Shown: positions 21,801 to 50,200 of the stretch, in pieces
Position numbering within the stretch: position 1 is the stretch's first letter
Layout of the letters: the number at the start of each line of letters is the position of its first letter
Assembly: GCA_036172245.1 (NCBI GenBank)
Contig: JAYWIR010000012.1
Coordinates: forward strand, 1,302,001-1,366,000
Source of the DNA: Raillietiella orientalis
Lineage: Eukaryota
Length of the DNA stretch: 64,000 nucleotides
Reading direction: 5' to 3'
Notes under the pieces: generated by a model
What the model was told of the DNA's origin: nothing
Seen by the model: the letters and a program-made list of their open reading frames with translations, nothing else
Databases searched by the model: none
Translations under genes and position numbers: made by a program

Positions 21801-22108
21801 AGGCATGCAGAGAGATCAGGACTAGGCTGCCGGGATCAGAGAAGGTGACCTTGTTCCTTCTTTCCTACGAAGGTCGCGCTAGTGCTCCAGGGGGAAATCA
21901 AGACACTACGATGTCTTACTGAGGGCAGGGCGGGATCATCTCCTGGTGGACTTCCAATAACGCTTGTTTCCTGCCTTCAGAAGTGACAGCCGGCTTACAC
22001 ATCGAAATAGGGGCCGAGGGCCGTCTCCAGTTCGTCTCCCCTTCGCATCGCCCGCAGTGTCCCCGTTCACCTTTGTGTCTGCCCTTGTTTTGCCTACCGA
22101 GGAACGCC

Positions 22109-22871
22109 ATGGCACCCCTTCTCGGATACTGGAACATCCGAGGACGAGCCCAGCCCATTCGACTCCTGCTGGCCTGCACGGAGAGGCACTTTGAGGAGAA
22201 GCGGTATGAGGAGGGTGACCGTTCTCCCGGGAGGGACTGGATGGCAGAGAAGTTCTCCTTGGACCTGGACTTCCCGAACGTAAACTGCACCATCCTCTTT
22301 TCAGTGTCATTCATTGCTTCGTTCTCTCACTGCCGCCTCTCATGCCCTCTCTAAGCACGTCCCGCTCTCCTTTGTCTAATCCTCCTACTCTTCCCAGCTG
22401 CCCTACTACATAGACGGTAGCGTCCGGCTCACCCAGTCCAACGCCATCCTGCGCTACTTGGGTCGCAAGCACGGCCTGTGTGGGAAAAGCGAGCAACAGA
22501 GAATTCGCATCGACTTGCTGGAAAGCGAGGCCACGGACCTCAGCAACGCATACTTGAGGCTGTGCTACAGCTCGAGGTTCGCCGTCCTGAGGGCACCCTA
22601 CGTGTCCACCCTCATGGCCAAGCTGGAGGGCTTCTCAGCCTTCCTGGGCAGGAGAGAGTGGTTCGCGGACGTACTATCGTACGTGGACTTCGTCCTGTAC
22701 GAACGCCTGGACCAGCACATGCATCTGGAGCCCTCTTGCCTGAAGGAGTTCCCCAATTTGAAGGACTTCCAGAGCCGCTTTGAGTCCCTGCCGGAGATCA
22801 AGGAGTACATGGAGAGCACTCAGTTCCTCCGGTGGCCCATCAACGGGAGAGCCTCCAAGTTCGGGTATTGA
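22109..22871 (+). CDS. GSTM: Glutathione S-transferase, Mu class (2 exons, 214 aa)
   Basis: Exons 22109-22279 and 22398-22871, GT-AG intron of 118 nt. MAPLLGYWNIRGRAQPIRLLL...KFSLDLDFPN|LPYYIDGSVRLTQSNAILRYLGRKHGLCG...LSYVDFVLYE..D; catalytic Tyr present, open frame to TGA. Confidence 0.97.
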
Positions 22872-25559
22872 GGAGCTTCGGGCAAAGCAAGGCACCCTTC
22901 GATCCGGACCTTCGGCTGTGAAGTGGGGTGTCTGCCCGATGACTTTTCTGGAATGTCTAAGGGAGCGAAGGAAGAAGCTAGAGGAAAAGCAAAGGAGAGA
23001 GCCAAGGAAAAGATAATAAATCACCTCCTTCCTTTTTCTGAGGAAAGAGGGAGCAAAAAACTGGAAGACAGTAGCCCAGTGGGAGAGTCACGTCCAGGGT
23101 TCTTCAACGAAGGTTCCTGCGCGGGACAATTCGCGTTTTCCGAGACAAACTTAGAGAACAAGGCTGCTCCTGCACGGAGATGGAGTGCTTTAGGCAATAC
23201 ACGGAAGCTCCTCCTCGTGCAGCAAAGAGTTCCAGCCCTTCGCAGAAAGGGTATGTGGTCGCGATACTCCAAGGAAAGATACGGGCGAACGAGGGCCTGC
23301 GGCGTCGGGAGTGGCACTGCGGACAATGGGAAGCGGGGAGCTCCGAACGAAGAGAGAGAGCTCCGAACGAAGAGAGAAATGTGCGTCCCTCGAAGGAACA
23401 AAGGTTCCTAGTGGAGAGTGCTCCGGGAAAGATATTGCTGATAGCCGGATTCGGCACAAATGAATCCCCGGGATGGTTTCCAAGGCGACCGTTTTTTCCT
23501 TTCCCTTCGAAATCTTCCACCTGCTTCCCACACAGCGATGCGAAGAGGAAGAAAGCGCTGGGAGCTCTCAATGGTCTGGGAGGAAGAATGGAAGGAACGT
23601 CTCCATGGAAGCGTTGCGGCGAGAGGAAGATGTCTTTCGGAGGCGCCATAATCCCCGATGACAGCTCCAAGCTGGGGCTCAAGTCATGAACCCTTCCCTC
23701 CAGAGACCGAAATTAGGGGACACATCACTGGCCTCGTGTCCCTCTTGCTTGGTGGCATGCCGATGTCCTCCAGTGAGAGTGGCGCTCAGGTTAAGACGAA
23801 GAGGCGAGCAAATCAAGGGCAGCTGTGGAAACGAGGAACAACAGGGAACCTCCACACCATCACTTCGCCCTGGCAATCTGCTTTCCTTTAACTCCAAAAT
23901 GGAGGCAGTGTTCTCGTGCTGGGGTACTCGGAACTGCAGGCAATCCTTGGGATAGGCACCCTTGGTTCTATCACCTCCGAGGTGCTGCCGGCATTCTCAT
24001 CTTCTATTTGATCACAGTTGGGAATGCTCATTTTGCGAGTGAGTCCATGGCTTTTCAGGAAATTCGCAAGTCAACAAGAAACCGGAAACGACGTATCTCC
24101 CTGTCATTAAAAAACGTGACCAAGACGGGATGATTTTGATTTTCATTTGCCTCCTCTGTCTCATTCGCCCTGAATTAGTGCCTCAGACATACGATCATCA
24201 TTTGAGACGGCCAACTTTCGGATGGGCCATCATTCAAGGTCACTTTTGTGGAAAAACTTGCACACCATCTTTCAGACACACGGTCAGTGTCTTTGAATGC
24301 TCCTATTTGACCTTTCTGGACGCGCAAATCATTTTCCCAGAATCACCGTGGGCAGAAACATGCTCTTTCTTATCATCCTTTCTTCCATTTCCTCGTTTCC
24401 TGGACTCTAGATAGGCTCGAATTCCCTCTGGAGTATATCCATCACCTAGAGACAGTGCTTGGTTCCTGCTGTGCACTTTAGAAAGCAAAGTAAACTCTCC
24501 ATGTCTCTGATCTCGGGAACAATAGGCAGCAATGCAACCTGGTCTATGTCAAAATTCATCCCACAAAGACCTTCAATGCCTTTGCAGTGAAGAAGCCAGT
24601 TTCTCTTGCATCCACCAGTTTCAACTTGAATAACCCGCGTGTGAAGCAAAACTTCACGATGGACTTAGAACTGAAAACATTCAGATGGGAATGGAAATAA
24701 CGAGATTTCTTCCAAAGGACTTTGTAGGGGCCTTTACTTTTTGCAGAATATTAAAAAAGCCAAAAATCTGGAATCTCCTGTTTATGCTTCTAGGTAGTAG
24801 AGGAAGACTTTAGATTTCAACAGATCGAAAAAAACCACGGAAATGGGTTTTATTCATTTCATTTACATTTCTTGTTATGCAGCTTGCATCTAGAAGATTC
24901 TAAAGCAGCATGACCCACTATTAGAGGTTTAAGATTATCAAGAACAATGTTTATTTCTTTTCTATTCTTAACCTGGTTATAGTGATTTGAACATGAAGTC
25001 TTCTGGCAACACTGATCTGTTGAGCGTTTGAGGAATGATAGGATCGGAATGTATGGAGCCATCAAGAAAATGTCAGATTCAAGCAAAAAGAAAGGAAATG
25101 TGCGGAAAGGGAAGAACAATCAAGGGTGCAGTGAACACGGAAAAACATTTCAAATTGAAAAACATAAAAGCGAGCAGTTGGTGTCAGTTAGCAACCGCTG
25201 CAGTTAGCTTCACCATGGTCTGAGGGAATGAACCAACAAACAAATCGTAGACTTGGCAAATAATCAAGTACGAAGGATGAATGCTAAATTTGCAGAGTAC
25301 TTAACTTGCCTCTCTCTGGAAATTTTAGGTGATTTTAGACTTCAATTGTCTTTTAAATAGAAAAGACGAAAGCATTTACTTACGCACCATACTCTAACAA
25401 AAGACCTTTCGTGTCCTAAATGTTGCAAGAACGATTCTAGTTGCAAACCTTGTCGTCTAATTGAAAAATCTAAGGGCGCATTCAGTTCATTGTAATTAAT
25501 ATCTTTTTATTTCTCAGTTTAGATTTCCTTTAAAATCCATGATCTAAAATACAGAAACC

Positions 25560-27186
25560 ATCACCAGATGAATCTGCTTAACTGTTTCCAGAAGAAAAGA
25601 CTTCATTGAAATTCGGCGCAACAGTCAAGACAAGTCAAGTAAATCGGGGAATTTCCAAACTTGAATCAAAATTCCTTATCCTCCCTTTACTGTAATCCTT
25701 TCTCTTTAACATGCAATGAGATTTCTCCTTAATTCTTGAGCTGAATCATCCCCGCTCTTCGTTTTAACCTTCATGTAATCACTCGATGCTTCCAAACAGG
25801 GTTTAGCTGTACTTGAAACGGTAGCTGAAAGATAAAATGCTTCTTAAAAAGAAATCCTTCTGCTCTTATATGCTTTTTGTGACCACTCCTTGTGACCACT
25901 CCTCCACTCCTTTTCTTTTCTTCACCACAATATTTCAGTCTGGGAGGATGAGCTACTTAGAAATAGTGCAAGGATCCATAAGAAAAGAATGGAAGACATC
26001 TAGTTTATTATGTAGTGCTATTTGTTAATTATAAAGTTTCAATTGATGTCACACTTTTTTTCATGAATTGTATTTGTCATTATCTTCCTCTTTAAAAATT
26101 CTATTCGCTTTTCCCAGGTTGAATCCAAAAAACTTGATTCAATTTGCAACTTTTTGTTCTGCTACAAAATTTTGCCACTTCGGTTCCATGAGAGTTTCCG
26201 TGCATTTGCTTCCAAGTTGTGCTCTAAAAGTTTGTGACCCTCTAAAACCTATATTCAATACAGCATGGTAAGCTCAACTGTTCTCATATATATATATATT
26301 TGTATATATCTATATTGCGAAGTAAAAGCTCATTGTTTTCTTGTGTAATGTGTATGATTGAAAATTAACTGATTTCTCGAGATTTTCTACCTCTTTTTTC
26401 TTTCTCTCAAAAACAATCCTTTAAGCATATGTACTTATGACAGTCACATCTCTTCCCTTTTTAATAACCAGGCATTTCTACTCCTAGAGAAGATCATTTT
26501 TCTTTTCCAACAATCGTGACACTCATTAATAATTCTGTCAGCTCTCTGTACACGCAACGAAATGCTTTAGCGTTTGAATCCCATCTTGCAATCCTTTTGC
26601 TCATTGTTGCATCCATGTAGCTGGTTTTGTCCAGTTACAATGTCAATGCAGTTAAATACAAAACAAAGCAATCCAACGTCTCATAAGTTACTGTTTTAGA
26701 TGGCATCAACGAAGTAGAGAAAATAATAATTAGACTGTAGTATCAGACCACAGTAAGGAATGTTCACATGTGGTTTTGGTACTTTAGTTTATAGCACAAA
26801 TACTTAGGTATATCATGAAATAATCTTTAGAAAAAAGTTGCTACAGATCACTTTATGATACACCTACGTGCAAAGGCATAAGTCTTACATGCTGAATTCA
26901 TATCCATCACATGAACACCATTCTTGATGATGGCTGTTCATCATTATCGAAACAGTTTTCTATTTTCAATCTTGTTTCGAAATGTCATTAATTATTTCTG
27001 TCATGAAATTTAAATGTAAGTCCACAATTTACCTACACATATAAATATTCACTAAGAGAAGCCTTTTTTTTTTGGCAACTTTAAGCCAACTGCCCGAGAT
27101 TGCTGCTGTTTGATGTCTTGTATCCTTTGTAATTTAACTGTCTGGTAATGCAATCGAAAAGAGTTGCTGATGTCGTCCCCGTCCAT
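25560..27186 (-). pseudogene. Decayed coiled-coil gene, tentatively CEP89-like
   Basis: Ordered fragments with stops and frameshifts: MDGDDISNSFRLHYQTVKLQRIQDIKQQ; SLRVQRADRIINEC; RDVTVISTYA*RIVFERKKKEVENLEK/ITQENNELL; VLEGHKLLEHNLEANARKL...IL*QNKKLQIE...KRIEFLKRKIMTNTIHEK; LKYCGEEKKR. Order recalls CEP89 (LDIKYLSPLL..VVKENEEL..VLEENKLLLEQLEIQQRK), from memory only. Confidence 0.45.
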
Positions 27187-27598
27187 GCTAATTCAGAAGC
27201 AAATTCTGGGAAGCGTTTGAAGCTGGTAATCTGGAAGCAAATTGCAGCCTTCGCATGTGCGCTTGTGGGATGGAACTCTCGCCAGTGGTTGGTTGTCTTT
27301 GCGTAGCGGATTGCTGTTCTGGATTCTCATAAAAACAAAAACAAAACAACGGGGAAAAAAATGTTGTTTATCATGCATCTTATTTGCTAGCTTGTTTCGT
27401 AAAAATAATCAACTACTTCATCACAGGTGTTACACATGCGGGCACCTGTGTAATGGGACCATGGTTTTACATACAGGATTCAAAGAGAAAAAAAATGATA
27501 CTTTATGAGGTCGGAAGGCCACCTCAGCAAACGTGATAAAAATTTCAACGGGTTCTGTGATTACAACAATTTTTTATGTTATTTAAATATATGATAAA

Positions 27599-30143
27599 AT
27601 GGATGAAGAATGGGGTGAAGATCTCCCTGTAGAAATATTTGAAGAATGTGATTTCATAGTCTCCCAAGTTAATGAGACTGCTGCGTTTAATTGTGATGTA
27701 CAAATTCCAAGCACATCAAATCCCGTCGATGTTTTGATGAAGGAAGATTTTCGACTATGTATTCTTTCGGTAAGAAATGTAGTACTTTGTTCAAAAGAAT
27801 GATCTGGAATTTTAGAAAGAGAGTGAAGTTGACAAACTGAAGGCTAAGTGTTCTTTTCTTCAAAGTGATGTTTATAAAAAGGAAGGAGAAATCAGTTATT
27901 TAAGAGCTGAGTTAACGAAGAAAGAAGTTGAGTTGCAAAAGACAAAATTGCAGCAATTTGATGAATTAGAAAAACAGTCGCAGAAATCAAAAAAGCAATT
28001 AGAAAATTTAGAAAAAAAGATTGCTTGCATGAAGACTGAGTTAGAATTTTCGGTAAACAGTAACATCACATGTAGTTATTTTCTGGAATGCAGAAATTGT
28101 TTTTAACTGTAATTAAGTTTTTCTGGTGCATTATATTATGTGTAATGTCTGTATGCTTTTAAAGTTTAACATACTGAAAACAAAGGTGTCGAGTGTTACA
28201 AGTATTGAAGCCTATCTAACGGGTAGAATCAGTGTTATATTTATAAGAAATAGTTTTGTTATTTTTGGTCTGAACATGTAAAGAGAACTTGGCTGCTTCT
28301 TAGTTCAGCACTGTAACAACATAAGCATATGCCTGATCATCTTATTTGATCTTGTTTACAAATCATTAGGACTTCGTGGTTTCAGTGATTTGTGTCTTTA
28401 ATTGTAATTCTTTCATGTGATGGGGAATTAAGTTGAAAAGGAGTTGTATGGAATTGTATGTTAGTTTATACTAAGCATCCCATTGGTATTTAAGGAGACA
28501 CCAACTTGAAGTTTGTTGGCATGTTCTCCATTCAATATTTGTACTGCATTCAACATTACATAATATTGTTGATCCCTTTAAAGTTATCTATTGATCCATG
28601 CAGAGGTTAGATGTCAACAAACTGGTGCAGAGCCATAGCCAGCAGGTGGATGAGTCTATGCAGAGGCAAAGGAAACGTCTTCGTGGTGACCCAGAAGAGG
28701 AATGGTCCAGTTTTCAGAAGAATAAAGATCACAGCATCCCATCAGAATTTGCAGCCTAGTAAGTGAGCCTTTTGTTTCTCATGCTAAGTTTAGTATTTTG
28801 TGTATTTAATTACATAGCCAACATTCAAAGCAGCTCCTGGATTCTGGGATTCAGACAAGTCCTCTGAAGACATCACATAATGTGGACAAACCTTGTTTAC
28901 AGCCAGTTTCATTTGCCTCTTCAGGCTGCATCTCTGTGATAAGTTTGATGCTCAGTGAATTGCTCAAGCATGAAGCATCATCTATGCATTGTCAAATTAT
29001 TTCTCAAGCAGAAGCTGAAATGAAGGGTGTTGTGCAATTGTTAGCCAATCTACATTCCTGTGCCTCTTTGGAACTGGCAGAGTTTATCAGCAGAATCTAT
29101 TCCATGTTCTCATCTGCATTACTGTGTTGCAAAGAATGTGTAGATTGTTGGCAGACTACTAACAATAGTAGAAATACTCTGGCACAGTTAATTTTGTGGT
29201 GGCTGCAGTCTGCTCCTAATGTGAGTTCTGAGTCTATGAAATTTCCACAAGTAGTTTGGGAAGAATTCCTGCATAGTCTCCACCAAATACTGCTGCAAGT
29301 ATGTCGTTGCTGTGAGTTTTTCTTACTTTGATTTAGTATCCTCAGGATATTCAGTTTATAGTGAATCTGCTGAATTTGTTAAAATGGCTGCTTCATTTGG
29401 AGCCTCAGCCCATTCTTTCTGATAAAGGGTGAGTGTGAGATCATAAGAAAAGAAAGCAACCTTCAGTTTTAGATTTTCATCATTCCATTGCATATTAACT
29501 GAATCTATCTCTAACTCAGAAATCAACCTACATCGATTGTACATTGCGTTAGATTGGAAATTTCCCTGTAGGCTATGCAAATCACCTATAAGTATACATA
29601 AGATATTACAATTCTTTCTGTTCATGTTTCTCCATCTGATTTGTTAGAGGACTCGTGTTTGCAGCCATGTTATCGTCTTTCACTTCTTAGATTTCTGAAT
29701 AAGGACAGTTCAGAGCTGAAAGTGACACAGCAAATACTTTTGCATGTTGCTGGTATCATCATTTTGGCACCTAATGAGCATTTTCGTCATGATGATACGT
29801 GCCCTTGTTTTGTAGAATTAGCTATTTTCTATGTGCATCTACTTCATCAAATGATTGTTGTTCAGAATCAGTGTTCTATTTCAAGTATCACGCCTATACA
29901 GTTAGATTGGGCATTCGATGCACTGGGTCAGCTGCTACTTTTAGATACCCATCTTGTTGTCCGGCTTGGATCCACTCAGCTTCTGTGCCTAGATTTGCTG
30001 CACGCTGTTAATCCTGGAGGATCTGTAGACACAAAAATCCGTAGGACACGTATAGCTGCATCCAAAAAGTATCTTTCCCCTTAGATCCTGTTCTGGAGCA
30101 ACTGAGAACCATTTTATTGGAAGAGAGTTTGGAATGTCTATGA
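27599..30143 (+). CDS. ATRIP: ATR-interacting protein (8 exons, ~565 aa)
   Basis: Exons 27599-27769, 27816-28052, 28604-28758, 28818-29298, 29346-29428, 29473-29591, 29648-30040, 30085-30143; all GT-AG and phase-consistent. Acidic N-terminus WGEDLPVEIFEECDFIVSQ, coiled coil VYKKEGEISYLR...MKTELEFS (cf. KNGEIKILR...QSELQFK), and C-terminal CPCFVELAIFYVHLLHQ (cf. CQCNVEVV...MLHRQ). Confidence 0.88.
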
Positions 30144-31899
30144 GCACAGACCAGAGTTCTGGAGTCCGACTAATATTTTAGATCACCCAAAAGGAAAGCA
30201 GTAATGTGGCGATCTGTTTAAAGTGATGGCTAGGTGTTCCTGAAGCATAGAATTCATCAGCACTTGGATCCTTATAGCTCCTAGTTTTCCATAAAGTGGA
30301 GCTCATTGTTACAGATTCCCAGGAGCTGCTGATCAGTGGGCTGGTTGCTTGTGTTGTTACCCAGGACTGATTGTTCTGTGTTTTTGTTTCCTGTTTTTCT
30401 GATGACATGCCTTTGTTTTCTACTTGTGAAATGTGTGAAAACATCTTATGCAATGCATATTTGAGATAATGGGAGCAGCCAGTTGTTGGACTAAAAAATT
30501 AGGGAAGTGAAGAAATATCAAACCTGAACATACATGCGATTCCAACAATGAATTTTGAGAACATAAAGAGTTTTGTTTAGAATGTTTCGGGCAAATTCTG
30601 TTGCTTTTGGACAATGTTGATGGGTTTTACGTATTAAGCATTCCTGGAACATATTATAGGCACTAAAAAAAACTATCAAACCGTAATTTGAAATCAAATA
30701 ATCACCAGCATAAGAAGGTGTCTGGGGAGTTGATAGCTGAAATTTGATCCACCAGGTATGTGAAGGAATCAGCACAGCTGCTGGAATTTGAGATGATGGT
30801 TTGAAAGCAAGGTGCATATAGCAGATATTCTTTGGCACCATAATGTATTTCCATCTGCTCTTGAAAGTTTTGTGGACTTTACCTGCCCTGTATTTGTTAT
30901 CCTTACAAAATTGTTGAATTGAAGAAATGGATTGAGAGATTGCATTGTCAAAATGGACACGTTGTTTCTCATTGATGCAATTCATCAAGTTGTGAACACA
31001 GTGTACAAATTGCATCCAGGAACTAACAAACAGGTAAGCATATTAGAACTATACAATTTTCTACATAAATAGATTTGCAAAAATAATATTCTAATATATT
31101 TGAGTTTACCTTGATTAAAAATATGCATCAGTAGCTTAATTTAAGTGGAATGGGTCTTATCACGCTGTAATTTAAATCTTTTGACATAAGAATACAGTAA
31201 TTGAACACCAGTAAACAATAACAAGCTTCTTCACAGTATAATTTGGTATGTATACTGTGAAGAAGCCTATTGTTGTTTACAGTATTCATGGAGGTAAATT
31301 CAGACTTGCATTCATTTAAGTACAATGATATCTGGACTTCAAAGTGCCCTGCATGTGTTGTTTCATTCTTTTGAGTAGAAGATAGTTTTCATTTACCACA
31401 CACGTTTGGTCAGTTTTTGCATCTTCTAGAATTGTTTCTGTATTAAATACGTGATTTTGTACCATGTCTGACACAGGAAACGTTGCCTTCAAATGTGATG
31501 CCTTTTGTTATTGGAAGGTGCAAAGCAGTAAGTTTATGCCCATTCTTTGAAAGTAACGTTTTTTCGCAATATTATCATCCACCTTAGTCAGCTTTTTGTG
31601 TCAGTGACTGTTGGTTGAATAATGTGGATGAACTGTAAAGGTTTTTGATACTTCTTCTGTTCAGTTTTCTTGTTCAAGGTTCCTCACTAGAAGAACTTGG
31701 ATTGGTTAAATGCTTTTATTATTGATTACCTTTTGTATATTCATTCTTGAATTTTTTTTTTTTGTTTTGCATTTTGAAAAACTAATGCTCAATGTTTTTG
31801 AAAAAGGCATTAAAAAGCCTCATTTCCGGGCCTTTCTTTTTTACTTATCTATGTCTGCGGAAAGTTCCTGCTGGGCTCTGAAATGTTTCAAGCGAGGTG

Positions 31900-32700
31900 T
31901 TTTGTTGATCCCCCCTTCAACGTGTTGGAACTTTAACATGCTTTTGCATTCTCCAGTGACATTCGTCCACTCCATCTTGGAGACTTTTTGAACAGTAAGG
32001 TGTAGCGGTGAATGCAAAGCTGCAGATTTGCTCCACGAAATCCAGAGTGTTATACGGCAGAAGTGTAGAGATCCTTGAGGCATGTTTTCCGATTCTCGGT
32101 CTTGCTCCTCCCCCGAGGAATGGTCCAGTGCGACGTTGGGTGCCTCCAAGCTCAAGTTTGCGGCACGCATCTCTTCTCTTCACGCAGATCCCCGCATCGT
32201 GAGGCCGAATTCTGCCCGTCCTTGTGACAGTTCTGCGAGTTGTGGATGCAAAATCTGTGCATGGTGCGGCCACCGTGCGTGATTTTGTGCGTTGGGTGCG
32301 ATTGGTGGGGGGAGGGACGCGTGCGCATGGCATCCGATTCGGGGGCTCTTGTTGCGGTGGTAGAGTCTCGAAGGGTAGTCGAGGTTGCGTGTTCTCAGTC
32401 GCAACCTCAGCGACTGGCATCCTGGGAATTTCCAATCCCGAAAACTTGAAAACAAAGTCGATTGCGGCAGAAGCACCGGTAACGAGGCATCGGTTTTCCT
32501 CCAGCTGTTGATCTTCCGAGCTCTTGTCTTCATGTCATTTGGTGGTGCGTTCTTCGTAGTCAGGTTTCAAAAGCTGAGCGGAAAGGAGTGAAACTTCCTC
32601 GAGAGTCGCTTCTTCCCGAGTCATTTGGTGTCGGATAGATGCTTAGCCGCTCTCTTTTCGATGCTATCATTTCACATGTGCTCAAGGATTACCACTCATA
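31900..32700 (-). mobile_element. Possible decayed BEL/Pao gag N-terminal remnant
   Basis: EEVSLLSAQLL...EDQQLEENRCL...TQPRLPFETLP loosely recalls the acidic helix plus KLPKL.LP motif; interrupted by stops. Confidence 0.2.
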
Positions 32701-35250: not shown

Positions 35251-35984
35251 GAAGCGGTCCGTGCCACCACGTGGTAGAACGGGAAGCGCCAGACCTTCTC
35301 TTACCGCAACGTGCTGCCGGAGGTCGCCGTCGGTGCTCTTTGGATGGTGATCGTTTTCCGCTCCCGAAAACTTCCCGCCGTCCGCTCGGCGGGAATTCAA
35401 GCGCCTGTGGGGTGATGGCAGATCCTGCGTTCGTTCCGGCAGCGGCCTCTGCCCCCCGCCGCGAAATTTCACTTGCGACCGCAGGGCTTCTTTCGGTCTT
35501 TACAGGAACGCAGGCTCCAATCTCAGGAGCCGTGCTCCGCACGTTCCCAGAGGAAAGCACACATGCAAAAGAGGAAGAAAGGAAAAAAATTGCGCGCACA
35601 CGCACGCACACACACACCGACGCACACAGAGAAATTTCAAGATGGTCTGGGGAAACTAAAAAAAAAAAAGGAAAGAAAGAAAAAGAATAAAAGTGCTTTT
35701 AATGCTTACCATGGTTTCACGAACATGTGGAGCTCCCAATCTCCTTCCTGCGCGACTTGGCGTGACGTGCTCTGCGCTCCTCCAGCGAAAGGCGCGTTTC
35801 CGGGTGGCGGCGATTCGCCAGGCGGACCGTCGGATTATGGAAATTTACGCAGAACCATCGATATATAACGCTGCCGCAACCAAATAATTATCGCTCCTCG
35901 GAAGTTTCCCTCTCGCGCCGGCCCCTCCCCGTCTCTCGCGCTCCGCGCGCGCCCGTCCGAACTCGGGGCCTCCGTCGGCTGCGG

Positions 35985-38900
35985 ATGGCGTGTTGCCGGG
36001 ATCGACCGATAGGCGAGCGCGAACGATTTTTCCGTTCATTCCTTTGTGTGTGGCAGTCCTCTGCGATGTCCCCGCCTTTGTTGATCACAGCGTTTGTTTT
36101 TTCGGAACGATGGGAGGCGTGCTATGTACGGGCGGATTCCCATGTCTCCCCACCAACGTCCCACATCCCTCCTCGGGAGGACAGGGGGATCCTGGCGAAG
36201 TTCCATTGCCGCACCGTCTTCCAAACGGCATCCGACGTTTATCCGGTCAGCCTCAGCTGCTCCCTGGAGCACAGGCAGCGCGCTGGTGAGGGGGGGGGGG
36301 CTCTGGCGTAGCGGGGCGGCTATCGAATGCTCACGTCATCGGAAACCATGGATACCGCGTTTCGTATACAGACGTCCCTCCGGCGTATCTCCTCGTGTGC
36401 GCCCCGTGCTTGAGGAGGACGCGGGCGACCGTTCAGTGCAGCTCGGAAACGGGTCGTTCGTCCGGCGAAGCAGTGGGAGAGTGTATCCATGTGTCGAGAT
36501 GCTCCGGGGTCTTCCGGTGTTTCCTCCACGTGGTTGGCACCGGAAATACGGGAGATGACGCCATCCGTCGAGTTGATAGGTCGAGTTCGGTCTCGGAGAT
36601 GTACGTCGAGGTTGTTGGGTTCGCCGAAGAAGGGCGAGCGCAAGTGCGCGCGGAGGACACTCGTGCTTCTCACGCGTACCAACCACTTCTTCCTCGCGTG
36701 GTCCCGTGCGACCTGCCCTTACATGGGAGGCCCTGCCCTCCACGTACGGTCCGCCTCCTTTAGGTGTTGGTTTTGCAGGATGCGAACGCCTCTGGTCCCA
36801 TATTTGTAAGGAGGGGGAAGAGGGGGGCGAGGCAAGTGAATAGCGGACGTTTCTTCGGGGCGAGGGAAGCAGGGTCTCTCAGGTTTTCCCCCCCTCTCTC
36901 CCCTCTCTCTCCAGATAGAGAGGCGCTTTCGTACCTTGCAGCCTCGAGCCTGTCGTCCGCCGAAGAACGACGAATTTTCTCTTTGCACCCTCATGGATCC
37001 CTGTTCTTGTTTCATCCAGTCTTTTTCACTCTGTCAAGTGATAGTGGGTCGAGGGCCGAGAGAGGGAGAGCTGTTCGTCGTAGGACCCAGAGACAATTTC
37101 CCCTGAGAAGCGGTTCTGCCAAGCTGGTAACTGCTGTTCCCCTACGACTACGCCCTCGCCCAAGTCCGGCTGCTCTTTTCTTGCCCCGAGCTCAACCTCT
37201 TCGCCGAGCATTTGGCGTCCATGTTTGTCGGCAGGCGGATCACCTCCTCTTGCGAAATCCGAAACTGGTCCAGGGGCGGGAACAGAATTCCAATTACGTC
37301 TTTCTCAGATCAGGGCATTCGCCAGGCGAAGCGCCGCAGGGTGGTTATGCGTTCCTCCGAGGTCTCCGCTGCTACCCGCCGGACCGCTACTCGGACGCTG
37401 GTTCTCACAAAAGAAGATGGGGGCTGCTGCGTGCAGGTCACTGAGAACGGCGCCGGCGTTTCGTTGAAGATGCGGCAAGCAGCCCTTAAATGAAGGGACC
37501 TTGCGACCCTGCTTCAATCGGACTAGTCGGCATTAGTCCGGCGCGGAGGGCGATGGTTGCTGTTGTTGAGTGCCGTGGGCCACAGTGCCTTCAGGGTTGC
37601 GTGAAGCCACCCCTCCCGTCGCGTCGTGTAGCGGGGCGCTGCTCTCTGGCGCGACTCGTGCACGCGTTCGAGTTAGCTGCCTTTCTCCCCTCTTTCTTTA
37701 TTTGCAGTTGCTGTTGTTGCTGCTGTTGCTGCTGCTGCTGCCTTTCCCTCCTCTTCCACCTCCACCTCTACGGCATCCAGCTGCGAAAGATGAAGGAGGA
37801 GAATCCCAGTTTCGAGCGCGGCCGCCCCTCTTCCCATGCTGCGCGCTCGCATCTGTCGAGTGGCCTCCGCGATGTCGCTTTCCGATTTCTTCTTCCCTTC
37901 TCAAGTTCGGCGCATGCACCAGAGGGGAAAGGATGCTCTTCTAGCGGCGTGGAGAAAAGCAGCGGCTACTCAATCCGCGCATCATTTCTCTTTCACCCGC
38001 CTCTTCCCTCCCGACCGGTTTGTCCAACATTCGCTTCTTTCTCAGAAGAAGGAACGGAGGAATGGTGGAACGGCATCCGACCGCTCTCTAGCCGTCCGGC
38101 AGTGGCGGGGGGGGGGGATAAGGAAAGGGGGACGAAGAGGGTGTACTGCGAAACCCGCGGCACCTTGTTTCCGTGCTCAGTGGCTCCAAGGTTCAACATG
38201 ATTTTCCTCTCGCCCACCAGGACTTCAACGATCTGGGAAAGCAAAGCGCAACCTTTCAGCGTGGACCACGGTGACTTCACCACACCCTACGTGGGGCAAG
38301 CGTTCTTCGAAGACTTGTGGTAGAGTTCCCACCTCCTCTTCTCGCGCTCTCTGCAAGGCACGCGGGTACGAACCCGAGCGGACCGGCGGTGAGGTAAAGT
38401 CAGGGTTCCCCACCCCACCCCCTGCGGTCCTGTCACCTTCCAGCTAGTCCCGCTGCTTGCAGATTGGAGTGCCGTTACCGGAGATGAGCGGCGGCCTCGT
38501 GCCCAGCAAGTCCACCGTCTACATCGGCAACCTCCCGTTCACCCTCACGAACAACGACCTGCATCAGATCCTGCAGAAGCACGGGAGGGTGGTGAAGTGA
38601 GTAGACCGGCCACACCCACTTCACGCCTCCTCCCCTTCCCACCCCTTCTCCTTCGGTTTCTTCTTGGCGGTTGCGCGAGCGCAACTCTTACCGGGTGAGA
38701 GGGGCGCATCCTTCCTGCGGACGTTCCCAAGGCTCGTTGCGCGTAGAGTTTCTCCATTCACCCTTCCTTCAACACTACCCCGGGGGGCTAACGGAAGCGC
38801 GAAACCCCCGCCCTCGCAGCATCCTTCCGCGGAGCTTGCGCAGCTCCCTCAGGTCTGTCTCGTCCGAAGGGTCACCATAGTGAAGGACCGGAAGACCAGG

Positions 38901-41771
38901 AAGAGCAAAGGGATCGCCTTCGTCCTCTTCCTTCACCTGCAGGATGCCCACAACTGCGTGCGAGCGCTCAACGACAAAGAGGTCGGTGCGGACCCGTCCT
39001 CCGGCAGGAGTGGGGCACGCACGCCCCCTTCAGATGTTCGGGAGGACGCTGAAGTGCAGCATCGCCGCCGACAACGGCAGGGCTTCCGAATTCATCAGGC
39101 GGCGCAGCTACACCAACAAGTCACAGTGCTACGAGTGCGGGGAGCCGGGGCACCTCAGCTACCAGTGCCCGAAGAACGTCCTCGGTGACCGACAGCCTCT
39201 CCCCAAACCGAAGAGGAAGCGGAAGAAGCGATGCAAAGAGACGGAGGAGGAGGAGGAGGGGTGCGAGGAGGACGACTACGATGACTGGGACTCCTTGAGC
39301 AGCGCCATCCAGCGCCAGGTTCGTCGTTGGATTCTCCGCGCGAACCAGTCTGTGACCCTTCCCTTTCCCCTTCCGTAGCAAGAACTGGAGGAGGGACAGG
39401 AGGAAGGGGCACCGCCTCATCGGGACTCCTCGTCTGGCCCAGTCCGCCGCAAGAGGTACAAGGCAAGCAGCTACTTCTCCGACGAAGAGGAGGTGGACGA
39501 CGGCGGAGACGGCTGACGTCCAGTCCTCACAACGGATGGGGGTGGGGGTGGGAGGGAAGGGAAGGGGAGGCAGGGAGGCGGCTTCCACCACCTCGTTGAC
39601 TTGAAAATACAAAAGAAAACTCTTCTGGGCTCCAGGCCTTGAGGTGCGTTCCTGTCCCTCGCGATCTTGACCCGCGGTTCCCAGTGCCGGAGGCGTTCGC
39701 CTCTACCACCACCGCCTGCTACTCGTGGCACAAAGGTCTGTGGCGCGGGCTGCATCCCCCACCCACGACCCTGCGCCTTTCAGAACGTATACTGCTACTG
39801 GCCACCCGAAAGGGCTACCTGGTAGCGCTGTCCCCAGGCGGCGAGCGCCTGCTGAGGAGCGCTCGCATCGCAGTCACCGATGCACGCGAAGTGACCGTCT
39901 TCCTCGCTTACCGGCCCTACGAGGAGTTCGTGCTGATCACAGGGGCCTCCGGGAGACTTCTGGTCCTCAAGTGGCCCGAGCTGGAGGTAAACGAGGGATG
40001 GGGGAGAGGCGCCTCCTCGGCGGGCCCACAAGCGAGCCCCGCCGAGCAGGAACGACGCCGCATGGAGGACGTCGTCCAGGTGACGCAATCGGACGTGCTG
40101 CTACGCGGGAGCCCGCAGCTGGTCGTCCGGCTCGCTACTGGCCAGGAGCTGCTCACAGACGTCCGCGACGACTTCGACAGCCCTCTCCGCAGCGGCGACG
40201 GCTGGGACCCACAAGGAGGGACTTCTTCGCACGTGCGCCCGCAGGTGGAGAATGCCCTACGGAAGAAGGCCATGGTGACGCTGCTCTGGGAGGGAGGGTG
40301 CGCGGTGTGCAAGCACGAAGGGGGATCTCTGGGGGGGCAGGACGTGCGCGGCCTTGTGACGGACGCCAGAAGGCGGGCAAGGAGGCGCCTGTCGGTTATC
40401 GCAGCCTTCTTGGGCTCCATGGCCCAGGCGAAGAACACCATTCCGTCCGATAAGGTTCGGCCCTTCATGCACGCCCCCTACTTCACCCCTTTATCCCACT
40501 CCTACCGTAGCCCCTGCGCTTCTCAGACGCATCCACAGGGCCGGAGTTTCCTGTGCCTCTCCTTGTCAGCGACGGGGGAGGCGGCGGCGCACCTCTCTTA
40601 GTCTGCCATTCGGTGTGGCAGCGGGTGGTGGACGACGCCTGGTGCGTGGGCGCAGAAGTGGAAGGTAAACAGGAGTGGACGACTCTCCATCTTTCGCGGG
40701 AGGTGGGGAGGGACAGGGAGGTAGGCGTGGCTGACGACCTCTCGCTAGCCCTCGAGAAGTCCGTGACCAATTTGGAGCTCATCCTCGCTTCTATTCCCAC
40801 GTGTGAGGCAACGGCGGCGACCACCCGTGTTTCCTTCCTGCCCTCGGGCGACGATCCGGATGCGGACCTGCCTGCACCCTTCTCTGGGTGCTTGCATCCA
40901 GGAAAACGGCTGCTTCTGCTGGGTGAGGAGAGAAGGGCCGTACCCAACATCCGTTGTTGCCGCAGCGACCACTGCCCTGCCTTCCTTCGCTCGTGACTCC
41001 GCGACGGAAGTCGGCGTGACGGTCTCCTACAAGATGGGGCAGCTGCAAAGGCTGCTTCCCGTCAGCCGGGTGTGCCTGACTGCCGCCGATGTCCTCTCCG
41101 GTCTTCACCGTGCTGACGCCGACGTCAGCAACAGTTGCTGCGCGACAGACGGCGATGCAAGCTCCAACCGGCGGCGACGCGACTATCTGGCACTGTGTCT
41201 GTCGCAGGACGTCTGCCGGCTGCGCCTGACTTCCTCCGTCCACTCGCTTTTGGACCTGGGGAAGTGGCTGGTGAGACCACCGCTGGAGATGCGCAGGAAG
41301 TTTCGGCTACTCTTCTTCACGTGGGACGTCCCATGGGCGAGGAACCTCTGCGTGCTCTGCCGCTCTGTGCGTTCCCGGGAGGCCACCGTTGACGTCTTTT
41401 ACAGGTGATCGTGGTGGGTGCGGTCGCCGCGCATCCGAGGGATCGGGCTGCAGGCGCCGACTGTCTCCCTTTCCAGGCGGCCCGCCGCTTTGGGCGCGTT
41501 CCTGCATGCCGCCTTCCAGAGCTGGCCGGAGGATGTGGTTCTGGCTGAGGAACCGCGATCCCCCTCTGAAGGAGGAGAAGAGGCGAGGTTCCTGGATGCA
41601 GCACAGAAGGAGATCCGCTACCTGCTGGAGCACCTCTCCGTCTTCGTTCCCGTTTCGGATGCCGACGCTCAGCAGCGAGGTGGCACAGTCGTCGGCACCG
41701 GCAGCGCGTACAAGAAGTTCCGGGAGGAGCTCTTGCAGCTCGAGTGCGCGACGGACGCAAGTCTTCCGTAG
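35985..41771 (+). CDS. FANCB: Fanconi anemia group B protein homolog (10 exons, ~788 aa)
   Basis: Exons 35985-36285, 36372-36643, 36764-36805, 39636-39986, 40050-40274, 40341-40454, 40511-40664, 40749-40922, 40966-41404, 41477-41771; GT-AG, phase-consistent, 2367 nt. Colinear with remembered human [16 protein letters not shown]~[22 protein letters not shown]~[25 protein letters not shown]~[26 protein letters not shown]~[26 protein letters not shown]~[29 protein letters not shown]~YREITLKVAEVQLKSD. Exons 4-10 are strong; exons 1-3 are more divergent and the exon 2 donor is least certain. Confidence 0.85.
37708..37740. repeat. Imperfect (CTG/TTG)11 trinucleotide repeat
   Basis: TTGCTGTTGTTGCTGCTGTTGCTGCTGCTGCTG; reads CAG/CAA on the minus strand. 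Confidence 0.9.
38394..38443 (+). other. Probable 5'-UTR intron of ZCRB1
   Basis: GAG|GTAAAGT...TGTCACCTTCCAG (50 nt), ending 40 nt before the ZCRB1 ATG; alternative acceptor at 38462. Confidence 0.5.
38484..39516 (+). CDS. ZCRB1: Zinc finger CCHC-type and RNA-binding motif protein 1 (U11/U12 snRNP 31K), 4 coding exons, 215 aa
   Basis: Exons 38484-38596, 38870-38981, 39034-39318, 39379-39516. [26 protein letters not shown] (RRM), [40 protein letters not shown] (zinc knuckle), SSYFSDEEE; closely follows vertebrate ZCRB1. Confidence 0.97.
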
Positions 41772-44232
41772 AGTGAACGGCCGGGGGTCCTCTTCGCACC
41801 CTTTCTGATACCTTCCCGTGAGCGCTAGGGGTGCTATTGTGGGAAACGCCATTCCTCTGCGCGGGCCCGAAGCGCATTCGAGGAAGTGTCGCTGCCGGTG
41901 GCGGTCGGGCCACGCCATTAAAAGCACTCGTTCCAGTCCTCATAGGTCTCCATCAGCGGCTCGCGTCCCCCAGAGCTGCGGCTGAGCTCATGGGAGCCGC
42001 GGAAGGCGTCTTGGCGCCGTGGATTTCTCCTTTCCAGCACGGACCTCTTGCAGCCTCTGCACCGGCTCGAGGGGGAGGGGCAGGATGTCCCCAGCGAGCA
42101 CTTCCCCACTTGGGTGGGATTTCCCCCAAGGTGAGCTGCGGTCTCCTCTCCCCCAAATTCCGTGTTCCCGCGTCTTTCGACGGGTATTTCTGGCTCACCG
42201 TCGTTCCGTGCTCCTTGCGCCTGGACCGGTATGTTCAGGTGCTCCCACGATGGAGAGTTGGAGAAAGGAACAGGATGAGTCTGCAGGAGGACAGGGGTAG
42301 GGGACGCGCCCCTATGCCAGTGCTGCTTGCTCTTTCGGAATTGATGCCATCTCAGGTCTCAGAGAGCCGAACGCGACCTCGTCTCCTCGGGCGAGGAGGC
42401 AGGGACGCAGGAAGACGGCGAAGCAGCTGCTTGCGGCAATGGGCCGGTATCGTGCGCAGCCGCGCTCCGCACCCCAGCTCCGTCTATCGGGAAGAGCGTA
42501 GCCGTTTCCCCCCAGGAAGGAAGCGCTCCCATGGTTCGCGATTCCAGGTGGACTCCACATATTTCTCCGTGAATGGGAAGGCCGGCAGACGTCGAGTGCG
42601 ACCCGAAAGGGACAGGGTGGAAGGCAGGGTATCTTCAGAGTGGGGTAGTGCCTCTGGGCGTGCAGCTTCTACATCCGCCTGGGCCCTCACGAAAGTTCGA
42701 GAACGACGGCGGGGACTCGCTCAGTCCAGCTGCGCCGCAGGGCGTGCTTTGGCATCCATGCGCACGTGTGCCGCACTAGAGTGGTGAGTTGCCGTGGCAA
42801 CGCCCCTGTGACAACTGCAGGGGAATTCGGACCGGGCAGTCCGTCCAACTGCGCTGCTGCAAGAGAATACACAGCTTCCCGCGCTCAGGGCCGCCGGTGG
42901 GCGCACTGCCTTCGGCGACGAGGTGGCGGGGGGCGGAGATTCTCTCCTCGGCGACGTCTCTTCCTGAGGCCGTCATGAGATCGGGCTGCGCGTGCTCATG
43001 AAATTCCCCTTGCAAGGACCCTTCCTGCGATCTGCGTTCCCAGGGTGCGGTAGTTCAAGAGCTGGAACGATGGCGTCCATAAAAAGCAGCCGGTTTCTTG
43101 TGAGTGGCGGCCACGGACTATCGAGAGACCGCGGATCCTTCCCCGACTCCGATTACGCCCCTTCCTGTCTTCTACCCCGGTGGCACCGCGGCCTTCCTCC
43201 CCGGAAGGGGAGCGAGCGGAGGTGAGCGAAGTCGCTTGGCACTCCTAGGCAGTTCCATGAGCACCTGCAGGGTTGGCGAGCGCGAATGAATGGCCGAACC
43301 CCTGCCCGCCAGGCTACTCCCTCGATTCTCCCGTGCGGGGGTAGGCGGCAGCGCCAAGGCACGCGCGCGCGCATCTCGATGAAGCTGCGCCCTTGGCTCC
43401 ACGTGGGGGAGCCGTCGCTCTGGGAGGCAAGGATGACAGAAGGCGTCCGTCCTACCCAGAGTCTGATGGGGGACCTTGGAAAGCGGCGGAGTCTCCTCGA
43501 TTTCTCGCGGCGGTGCCATGGTACGAAAGCGGAGGCCTCATCGCCCTCATCAGAGGGGCTACTGATGTCATCGGGCAATGCTGGACCCGAGTTTGACGGC
43601 AAAACAGGTCGCATCTAGGTCGTTCCGCCAGCGTCTGGGAGGAACAGACCCGCCGAGGCGCGAGAAGCACTCCTGGCATGCGGAGGTCAGCCAACGTTCG
43701 AGCACACCCTTTGACGCCAGCTCAGGGGGCGGCGCCTGATTGGCGCCTGCCTTTCAGTCGGCAGGAGGGAGGAGGAGCGAATTACATCAGGAGAGCACAC
43801 GCTGGACACCTTCGACCTTGGAAACAGCGGATGAACCGGGTTCTGCCCTTCGTGGAAGGGCGAGGGCAGCTCCTGAAACATCCGACAATCTGGGCGCTTT
43901 CCCGTGGTGCAGAGGAGGTCCTCTTTATTCTCTTTTCCGGCTCTTCCTGGTGACCTGTAAGTCGCCAGCCCCGCGGGTGCCGACACCGTTCTCACGCTTC
44001 GGCGGTGCTGCAGTGTCAGCAGCATTCCCCTTCCGGGGAAGGAGTGGTGATGGCGTGGTTTCAGGGAAGGGTATGGCGAGGGAAGGACGCACGGGTTGAG
44101 GCCGCTCCCAAAAGGGCGGTGGGTGGGGCTGCAGCTCGCCTTGAGGCGATGTGGAGCGAAAGGCACACGGGGAGGGCCACAATGGAGGAGGAGCGCCACA
44201 AGCAGTCGGGCCAGAGGGACAGGGGAGGGTCC

Positions 44233-47200: not shown

Positions 47201-50200
47201 CGCGCGCGCCCCGCGCGGAGAGGCCGCCCGATCACGTGAAGAGGGTCGCGTCAGCAGGCAGGCGATCACGTGCGGAGACCGCTCTTCTGAGGTCAGCACG
47301 GAGCGGCGCTGCCGCCGCCGCCGGCCGCGCGCGCGAGGGAGGCAGCCCCGGAGGCGGACACGTGGGACGGGTCGCCCGGGTTCCTCGCCGCTGTGACGGG
47401 CGGCGGCGGCGGCAGCAGGAACTCACCTTAGCGTGGGTGTAGTCGTGGGGCCCATAAGGAAGGCAGGCGTCCTCCTCGGCCGGGCGGTTCTTCTCCGCCT
47501 CCCGCTGCTTCTTGCGCCTCCGCCGGTGCTTCACGAGGACGGCCAGCACCATCAGGTAGATGGCGACGAGGACTCCCGCGCAAATGCCAATGACGAAGTA
47601 GTCGCCGGGCTTGTCCGCGCCCGCCATGCTCGCGGCGTGGTCCAGGTAATCTGGTGGGGGGGAGGGACGGTAAGACAGGGCCCGGGGCGACGGCCTCTGT
47701 GGTCACCTGTTATACCGGCCACCCGGAACGCCACGCAGGGGTGGAACTCCTCCCTCGTGCTGGGGGTCGTGACCTTGCACGTCAGGTGCACCAGTACGAC
47801 GCGCCCCTCGACCTGACGCCGCAGGGACTGGTCGCCGTACCACTAAGGGCAACAAAGAGAGGTGTTTGGGTCGATCCATGTCATCATCCCTCCCGCGTCC
47901 GGCGCGCGCGCGCGTCTCAAGCCCTCCTCTGTGCCGACCCGCCCCGATGCAGTCGTCGCCTCGGGGCAAGCACCGCTTATCCGGCGTCGCCGGGGAAACC
48001 GGGGCTAAAGGAACGCTCCCGACAGCCAGGACTGTCCCGTCTCCCGGGAAACCCTCCCTCTTTTTCTCACTCCTTCCCTTCGTCTCGCCCCCATCCAGCC
48101 GACACCCGGGTGGAGTCGGGCAGGAGGTGAGGAGCGACCCCCTCCCGAGAAAAGGCGTGAGCAGGTCGTCTCCTCCCCTTCCCCCCCCCCACGTGGTAGG
48201 TTTACGCGCGCAGCATCAGCGCTGAGCTCCCGACTGGATGCCCCAGTGAGCGGGCGATTTTCCAGACAGGTCGTCCCCTCGCTTTGGAGCCGCTATCTGC
48301 CGGGGTCTACGGGAGGGGCACCTCCCCTCCTCGAGCTGACGCCACGAACTCCCGGAGGATGCCCGGGAGGGTCGTCCACCTGCCGAGCTGACCACCCGCC
48401 CGGGAAGGGGAACGCAAGGGTTCGACCTGCCAGCCCTGTACGTCTCATCCGGGAGGGTCGATATGGGGGACATCCCGTGCCCGTCCGCTCGCGGGTCGGG
48501 GCATCCGACCCTCCTCCGCGCGCGAAGGGTTGAAGAGCCAACGGGGAGGGGCACTGCTGTTCAGGACCCGCACCTGAGCCCGCAGAGTCAACACCACCCC
48601 TGCGCGGCCTGTCTTGTCACAGGCGGGTGGACAGAGCCCGCTGTCTGCAGGCGGCAACTCCGCTCTTTTGACTTCCCTCACGCGCCGTGCCTGGATGCCA
48701 GCTCGCTTCCACGAGCTGCCCTTCCTCCGGGTCGCGTTGGTTCCCCGAGAACGCGCGCGGACACCCACCTGCAGGTACACGCGGGTCTCAAAGCGAAAAA
48801 GCTGGAAGGGGTTCTCGTTGGACGAGGTGTTTCCGAGGTCGGTCCATCCGTCCTGCCGCAGGAACTCCGCACGGGACGCCAGGCACACCGGCGGGGCGCT
48901 GGAGTCGGAGGCCTTGACTTCTGGAAGTGGAAAGGGTCTCGGAGGTTATACGTTGTGGGACGACTGCTGCGCAGTGTCGGAGAGCTGGGGTGGATCTCCG
49001 GCGATGGAACGTCCCCCTTTGGGTCGTCCTGTCCCTCAGCTCCCGAGACCTGGAGAGACGACCCGAACGCGCCCTCCGCCCCACTCGCGCCGTCCCTATC
49101 AGACGGTCGGGAGGAGACTATGGGACGGAGGGGCACGCGAGCCACTCTCAAATGCAGAGAGCAGCCGGGATCCGTCACCGTCGCTCCAAGGGGTGGGCTT
49201 GACCCCAACTTGACTTGACCGCTGCTGTCTGAGGGACACAGCGGCTGCACCCCGTACCTTTGAGCACGATCTGTGCCCTCGGGTGGACCAGCTGGTTCAT
49301 GTGGGGCATGAAGATGTACGGGATGGTCTCCTCGCCCTCGTGGCTGACGAAGTACGCCTGCGTGCACTCTGAAAGCACAGGTGGTTAGACCACGGGGGGC
49401 AGTGGAGAAAGACGAAGGACGAAGATGGAAAGAGGAAGAGAAGGAGGAGAAGGAAGAGAGGTGCAGGAGGAAGAGAAGGGAACTCAAGCCAGTGGGTAGC
49501 TGAAGAGGTCCAAGGCTCCTTTTCGAGTGGTAGACGAACCCACGCGCAAAAAGAGTCGGCAAAGCCCGCAGCCAGTCACGTGCGAGGCTCTTTGCCGAGA
49601 CTCCCCTTTTGCCCATCTTAGGGGACCAAGTTCCCCCTCGAGTCAGAGAGGCGGCGAGTGGCAAGGTAACGCGACGCCCGCACGAAGTCGGGAAGGCCAG
49701 TAGCCTAGGAGAGCCGTGCTGACCGCAGGGGACCGGAAAGGGACTTCAGGACGCCTTCTCTCTGGACCCCGCTCTTCCACCTAACCCAGGACTGGCGGGT
49801 CTAAAAGGCGGATCCGATCTCCTGGACGCCTTCGCGACCCGAGAGTCAGCGGGCCCTCCGAAGACCCAGCCACGCGGCGGTCAACTCGAGCACCCGCCAG
49901 CCACCGGATCCCGCCGAGCAGACGTTCCGACCAGCCGCGCACGCGCGCTGTGCCCGCTTTGCTTTCCAGCGGGCGACACGCACCCAGCACGACAACTAGG
50001 CTTCCGGGGCACCCTGTTCAGGCGCATCTGCCGGCGTCTGCTGCCACCGTCACGCGGCATGGGCCGTTGCCAAGGCGCGGGCACCTCCCGGAGCCCGAGC
50101 AGCGCACGGAATCTCTTCATGAGGTCCATCCACTGATGCTGGCGAGGGCGATCGGAAGCCGCGGACTCTCCCGTCCAGGAGCGTTCTTTGGGAGCACGCC

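Follow-up and report, generated by a model that had tools for sequence, protein, structure and literature searches.

Background

According to the accessible text of PMC11694760, more than one tenth of mouse and human genes take part in host/nested pairs; in both species nested genes favour long, 5′-proximal introns and show only a slight bias to the opposite orientation. The accessible portion of PMC13309782 agrees on the frequency of such pairs, and both it and the available part of PMC3192792 treat interference via intronic polyadenylation as an established theme. Here we analyse a locus that may belong to this class. It lies in a 64,000-nucleotide (nt) stretch of Raillietiella orientalis DNA (assembly GCA_036172245.1, contig JAYWIR010000012.1, positions 1,302,001 to 1,366,000, forward strand), referred to below as the window, whose positions are counted from its first letter. 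The locus contains a ZCRB1 gene closely followed, on the same strand, by a seven-exon gene that lacks a start codon. An earlier interpretation made from the letters of the DNA (the sequence-only reading) had placed ZCRB1 within intron 3 of a gene for FANCB, a scaffold of the Fanconi anemia (FA) core complex.

As in the metazoan host/nested pairs described in the accessible text of PMC11694760, the arrangement proposed here would consist of a complete gene with its own promoter in a long 5′-proximal intron of another gene. It differs from those pairs in that the host junction is a predicted one, that the nested stop codon lies only 119 nt from the next host exon, and that the nested gene has just a variant hexamer as a 3′-end-like signal, 24 nt short of where the intron ends. 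The sequence-only reading stated that nested genes are more often antisense. The accessible text of PMC11694760 gives the two orientations as nearly equally common; same-strand nesting is a common and ordinary arrangement.

ZCRB1 and the seven-exon gene

The most likely reading of the locus, which we hold with moderate confidence, is that ZCRB1 is nested, on the same strand, in an intron of a host gene that measures 2.2 kb or more. It starts from two sets of coding exons that can be followed directly in the sequence, together with the missing start of the second gene, the 119-nt gap between the genes and open, in-frame joins. The features concerned are as follows.

38394-38443, + strand: possible 50-nt intron in the 5′ untranslated region (UTR) of ZCRB1, GAG/GTAAAG ... 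ccttccag, putative, donor score 8.5
38484-38596, 38870-38981, 39034-39318 and 39379-39516, + strand: ZCRB1 coding region, four exons, 215 amino acids (aa), rebuilt from sequence
39636-39735, 39784-39986, 40050-40454, 40511-40664, 40749-40922, 40966-41404 and 41477-41771, + strand: downstream orphan gene, seven exons, 589 codons, without an initiator ATG

The ZCRB1 gene is complete and intact on the + strand. Its coding region is interrupted by introns of 273, 52 and 60 nt, all of them GT..AG, and closes with a stop codon at 39514-39516; the donor and acceptor motifs further upstream make an additional 50-nt intron in the 5′ UTR likely. All three scanned pieces of the protein exceed the Pfam cut-offs: RRM_1 matches exons 1 and 2 with 23.7 and 28.6 bits (cut-off 20.7), and zf-CCHC matches exon 3 with 28.6 bits (cut-off 20.8). 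The order of domains, RRM_1 followed by zf-CCHC, is identical to that of known ZCRB1 (U11/U12-31K), the subunit of the minor spliceosome that combines an RRM with a CCHC zinc knuckle. When the word index was searched with exon 3, 11 of 38 candidate proteins had E ≤0.001. Eight of these 11 relatives are named, from sea anemone, coral, dragonfly, damselfly, beetles, sponge and amphioxus, and for each of the eight there is a source that gives the name ZCRB1. The spliced product can be aligned from residue 1 to residues 205-211 of 215 with eight of the 11, at 48-58% identity, and shares with its relatives an acidic C-terminus of the YFSDEE type. The protein shows no notable differences from known ZCRB1. 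The best full-length identity is 58%, and the lack of a closer relative in this search indicates that the lineage is poorly sampled. Its top full-length matches come from insects and cnidarians; that the DNA is of arthropod origin is plausible.

The second gene begins at a strong 3′ splice site. The acceptor at 39635/39636 (score 9.1) opens a frame that stays open throughout 589 codons, across six introns, all GT..AG and 43-84 nt long; with stops at the local rate of 0.0167 per codon, a run of this length has a chance of about 5e-5. The G+C content at third codon positions (GC3) is 0.68-0.81 in the downstream exons, against 0.46-0.61 at second positions (GC2). This pattern is of the coding type in every exon, which argues that the gene is live. 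Upstream of the acceptor the frame is closed by a stop codon 12 codons away. The only ATG in the 119-nt gap (39536) does not lead into the downstream frame, and once the downstream RNA is spliced, the ATG met first (39880) lies in another frame, so that no in-frame ATG appears before codon 106, at 40062. The earlier observation that coding resumes at the 39635 acceptor, without a start codon and 119 nt past the ZCRB1 stop, is thereby borne out.

Candidate upstream exons and the proposed nested arrangement

The absence of a start codon in the downstream gene, the absence of a promoter-like motif from the 119-nt gap, and the presence of the 10-mer TCTCGCGCTC before both available start codons together make 5′ exons located upstream of ZCRB1 the simplest explanation. 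The candidate elements of such a host transcript, in order along the + strand, are the following.

35934-35943, + strand: promoter-like 10-mer TCTCGCGCTC, 42 nt before the ATG at 35985, with a putative promoter role
35985-36285, + strand: candidate host exon 1, from ATG 35985, donor CTG/GTGAGG, phase 1
36372-36643, + strand: candidate host exon 2, open and in frame, donor CAA/GTGCGC
36764-36805, + strand: candidate host exon 3, 14 codons, donor TTT/GTAAGG, phase 0
37131-37490, + strand: coding-like open reading frame (ORF) inside the proposed intron, with a possible exon from 37165 or 37191 to 37436 and a phase-0 donor CAG/GTCACT at 37436/37437
38340-38349, + strand: second copy of TCTCGCGCTC, just before the ZCRB1 leader, likely marking the ZCRB1 promoter region
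39606-39611, + strand: AATACA, similar to a poly(A) signal and the sole hexamer of this kind in the 119-nt gap; the host intron has its last base (39635) 24 nt past the end of the hexamer
41917-41922, + strand: ATTAAA, 146 nt past the downstream stop codon, the likely 3′ end of the host transcript

The three candidate exons amount to 615 nt, or 205 codons without stops, separated by introns of 86 and 120 nt; they join 39636 in frame over a 2830-nt intron and give a total product of 794 aa. This is the chain in which the sequence-only reading had placed the missing N-terminus. Its coordinates are exact and its 205 in-frame codons are open, but the solution is not unique, and its first two exons, each taken whole, cannot be told from the background. 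The comparison was made with codon scores against a null of 480 stop-free segments drawn from the same 64-kb window. Within exon 1, only the 3′ half (36120-36284) is coding-like, with a GC3 of 0.75 and a place in the top 3% of the null segments.

The donor at the end of exon 3 had earlier been described as strong. Candidate sites were scored with a donor matrix trained on nine local introns and ranked among 218 GT sites; the matrix is small and over-fitted, and the ranks are indicative only. On this scale TTT/GTAAGG scores 1.2 and ranks 79th of 218. It fits the generic consensus on the intron side only and lacks the exon-side AG that is present in eight of the nine local donors. Moreover, a strong, pyrimidine-rich CAG acceptor at 36914, 109 nt past this donor, could pair with it instead.

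The proposed intron also contains a second coding-like element. The ORF at 37131-37490 is one of only eight among the window's 251 ORFs of at least 110 aa in which GC3 exceeds GC2 by more than 0.18, and six of the other seven lie within the glutathione S-transferase (GST), ZCRB1 or downstream genes. Its segment 37191-37436 falls in the top 5% of the null, and its donor CAG/GTCACT ranks 11th of 218 and joins 39636 in frame. When this segment is added to the three exons, the upstream part grows to 287 codons, the total product to 876 aa, and the last intron shrinks to 2199 nt; when exon 1 is joined directly to 37165-37436, the upstream part has 191 codons and the total product 780 aa. Thus, three host models, A1, A2 and A3, can be read without interruption from ATG 35985 to the stop at 41771. 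ZCRB1 is nested in all of them, and they vary in the number and size of their introns. For this reason, the claim of a 2830-nt intron 3 can be retained only in part: the other introns are indeed far shorter (43-120 nt) and the join is in frame, but the length is probably too great, because an exon ending at 37436 would reduce it to 2199 nt. Likewise, the intron does hold ZCRB1, complete and spliced, as had been stated, but the coding-like ORF lies inside it as well.

An imperfect (TGC/TGT)n microsatellite occupies 37708-37742, between this ORF and the ZCRB1 promoter region. Close by, at 37697, stands a TTTATT, that is, AATAAA on the minus strand, where minus-strand codon scores are not coding-like.

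In the nested arrangement, the host gene would start at the promoter-like site at about 35.93 kb, with translation from ATG 35985, and its transcript would run through one to four short upstream exons. Splicing would then skip ZCRB1 as part of a long intron of about 2.2 to 2.8 kb and resume at 39635/39636, and the host gene would end at 41771, with ATTAAA at 41917. ZCRB1 would be transcribed from its own promoter inside the host intron, and host transcripts would presumably read through its weak 3′-end signal. We infer both the splicing of upstream to downstream exons and the choice of upstream exons that serve it. Two kinds of evidence favour this arrangement: the + strand carries coding-like segments upstream of ZCRB1, at 36120-36284 and 37131-37436, and 39636 can be reached through three or more stop-free chains of upstream exons.

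The remaining points in favour of one long host transcript are contextual, and each of them is weak. First, on the + strand of the window, TCTCGCGCTC occurs only at 35934 and 38340, with one reverse-complement copy at 13273, and is absent from the 119-nt gap; the organism may use it as a core promoter element. Second, neither AATAAA nor ATTAAA is found on the + strand between 35686 and 41917, and in the 35-43 kb region these two positions, the former at the end of the preceding gene, are the only canonical + strand poly(A) hexamers. All three of the other + strand gene ends seen (35686, 23015 and 41917) have a canonical hexamer; the one at 23015 is an AATAAA about 145 nt past the stop codon of the GST gene. 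Third, ZCRB1 is followed by no more than the variant AATACA at 39606, which may act as its weak 3′-end signal. Finally, no direct or inverted repeats flank the ZCRB1 segment, which thus gives no hint of a recent insertion or of a transposon.

Several observations weigh against the nested arrangement. Of the 480 null segments, 23% have a codon score equal to or above that of exon 1 as a whole, and 30% one equal to or above that of exon 2. An exon-chain search for gene models was weak and penalty-dependent, being over-fitted at low intron penalties and collapsing at high ones. That 5 kb of DNA with 60% G+C should lack canonical poly(A) hexamers is not significant alone. The ZCRB1 donors at 38982, 39319 and 39493 are also of phase 0 and join 39636 in frame. 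The 104 open codons that precede the in-frame ATG have a chance probability of P ~0.17, so a start at 40062 is possible. The searches turned up no homolog of the host protein from which the expected N-terminus could be judged. A complex prediction with the three upstream pieces and the first 200 downstream residues scored 0.00, which amounts to no answer, and is evidence neither way.

If the join is real, the locus is a further example of a same-strand host/nested pair, unusual in how closely the next host exon follows the end of the nested gene, and its small size could make it useful for studying how polyadenylation and splicing compete. It is conceivable, though in our opinion quite unlikely, that the ZCRB1 3′-end signal and the host 3′ splice site overlap, AATACA lying 24 nt short of the last base of the host intron, so that cleavage for ZCRB1 and host splicing would be mutually exclusive on read-through transcripts, or else that ZCRB1 donors feed the same acceptor and yield a fusion of ZCRB1 with the scaffold. 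In both cases RNA processing would couple the amounts made of a minor-spliceosome subunit and of what may be a Fanconi-type DNA-repair scaffold; the sequence-only reading had likewise suggested co-regulation or competition at this level. For annotation the arrangement matters in a more immediate way: automatic gene prediction would be likely to yield a downstream gene that is cut short, a small upstream gene that is spurious, or a false fusion with ZCRB1.

Alternative explanations

The phase-0 donors of ZCRB1 invite a different interpretation, in which ZCRB1 and the downstream gene form one transcription unit driven from the ZCRB1 promoter. Some transcripts would end after ZCRB1, others would be spliced from 39319 or 39493 to 39636 and encode a fusion of ZCRB1 with the downstream protein, and the upstream exons would belong to another gene. 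Indeed, the donors at 38982, 39319 and 39493 are of phase 0 in the ZCRB1 frame, the fusions from 39319 and 39493 (B1 and B2) are open, and the genes are only 119 nt apart with no canonical poly(A) hexamer between them. A phase match has, however, a one-in-three chance, and the scores of these donors are inflated because donors of ZCRB1 were among those used to train the matrix. The YFSDEE-type tail of ZCRB1, moreover, is like that of stand-alone relatives (P0001, P0003 and P0004), which argues that the separate protein is the ancestral product, and in a search that admitted lengths of 168 to 2000 residues, so as to find longer proteins, the 11 relatives were all 253 aa long or shorter. A shared unit is, on balance, unlikely.

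It is likewise improbable that the locus consists of three tandem genes, namely a small upstream gene running from 35985 to a stop at 36761, 36809 or 37493, then ZCRB1, then a downstream gene with an unrecognised start site of its own, translated from ATG 40062 with 39636-40061 as its leader. The in-frame stops required upstream do exist (TAG 36759-36761, TAA 36807-36809, and TGA 37491-37493, the last overlapped by AATGAA), and 104 open codons have a chance probability of P ~0.17, as noted above. Yet GC3 is of the coding type (0.78 to 0.81) in 39784-39986 and from 40050 onward, that is, already upstream of 40062, and an out-of-frame ATG at 39880 precedes the supposed start. The start of the open segment, furthermore, coincides with a strong acceptor, a stop codon stands 12 codons before it, and the 119-nt gap is without a promoter-like motif.

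The 119-nt gap resembles operon spacing, and spliced-leader trans-splicing of an operon was considered for that reason. It was rejected: no in-frame ATG follows the acceptor closely enough to replace the missing start, codon 106 being the first, and nothing is known to point to a lineage in which the leader supplies the AUG.

Finally, an artefact or a decayed locus, in which ZCRB1 has been placed by misassembly between two parts of one gene, or in which the downstream frame is a duplicate truncated at its 5′ end, is very unlikely, for although long G runs of the kind that typically trouble assemblies are present (36289-36299 and 38107-38117), the downstream frame is intact through seven spliced exons with strong codon bias, and the proposed borders show neither repeats nor breaks in composition.

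Identity of the proposed host protein

If ZCRB1 is nested as we propose, its host encodes a protein that is, by sequence, an orphan. The FANCB label given to it by the sequence-only reading found no supporting match in Pfam, in the sequences of the Protein Data Bank (PDB), among 1.84 billion protein representatives, in the word index or in the ESM Atlas. Specifically, no Pfam family matched any of four downstream pieces at E ≤1. Pfam holds a FAAP100 family model, so this result includes the absence of a FAAP100 match. A phmmer search of all PDB chain sequences with the four pieces, at E up to 10, recovered no Fanconi protein; the sole repeated match paired one exon with a WD40 blade of RBBP4/7-type proteins and was non-significant (E 1.5-2.3). 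Phmmer against the 1.84 billion representatives gave no match at E ≤0.001, and neither did two word-index searches with the downstream gene give any. In the ESM Atlas, the first piece scored 0.90 to a bacterial cluster, with recognition below the mark, which is uninformative, and the second downstream piece gave no usable match.

Structure prediction offers only a rough outline. AlphaFold, run without an alignment, reached a mean predicted local distance difference test score (pLDDT) of 39.4 for 39636-40454 and 33.0 for 40968-41405, far below usable confidence. The former model suggests that the first ~110 residues contain strands and that, in the read-through piece, residues 237-266 form a 30-residue helix; the latter, of the last large exon, suggests mixed strands and helices. 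In the accessible text of PMC7467173, FANCB and FAAP100 have in common a layout of beta-propeller, long coiled coil, beta-sandwich, alpha/beta domain and C-terminal helix. The rough order of predicted secondary structure in the host protein, and the total length of 780-876 aa under the nested models, would be compatible with this layout. In contrast, no search detected sequence similarity, and with models this poor the likeness would be one of rough structure order only, on which FANCB and FAAP100 are indistinguishable.

It should be noted that, according to the accessible text of PMC10085685, FA core proteins can need five PSI-BLAST iterations to be connected between lineages. Failure of single-sequence searches is for this reason weak evidence against FANCB. 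The label is possible but undemonstrated; should the identity of a Fanconi scaffold be shown, the downstream orphan would extend the known range of a fast-evolving complex.

Internal blade repeats were also considered. Smith-Waterman comparison of upstream + strand ORFs with the strand-rich part of the downstream gene gave a best score of 40, against 39 for minus-strand ORFs. An "RTLVL..." motif likeness between upstream ORFs and the downstream part was dropped for being no better than this minus-strand control.

Comparison with other loci

In human, FANCB is X-linked and ZCRB1 autosomal. The ZCRB1/FANCB gene pair was not described in the open-access literature searched, in which both names came up together only in one unrelated expression study.

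A metagenome scan with ZCRB1 exon 3 yielded three loci among 212 pattern matches, all from other, A+T-rich organisms; an analogous scan with a downstream exon yielded no relatives among 345 pattern matches. None of the three ZCRB1 loci showed similarity to the upstream or downstream pieces at E <0.09. At the one metagenome locus inspected of the three (L001, 5174-6383, − strand), the nested arrangement was not seen. There, ZCRB1 is followed by opposite-strand ORFs whose translations, read by eye, look like C-terminal exons of an mTOR-type kinase and not like a host gene. The ZCRB1 gene of this locus has match boundaries after residue 38 and near residue 75, as does the ZCRB1 of the window.

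Composition of the window and neighbouring features

The window is eukaryotic, with very short introns and a G+C content of 55-67%. Embedded in it is an A+T-rich block of 8 kb (24000-32000, G+C 0.34-0.39), possibly a repeat or transposon island. Rfam gave no matches within the window. U12-type donors are absent from the ZCRB1 locus; the whole window holds three matches, all elsewhere, where 3.5 are expected, and two of the three GTATCCT[TC] matches (27120 and 29336) lie inside the A+T-rich block.

Two further coding regions were noted at a distance from the locus. A mu-class-like GST gene with at least two exons occupies 21923-22868 on the + strand; it matches GST_C_3 with 51.3 bits and GST_C with 39.5 bits, and GST_N is slightly below its cut-off. 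An ORF at 47235-47702 on the minus strand has a strong GC3 bias and a sub-threshold match to FAM176 (25.9 bits against a cut-off of 31.5), and is probably an exon of a membrane-protein gene.

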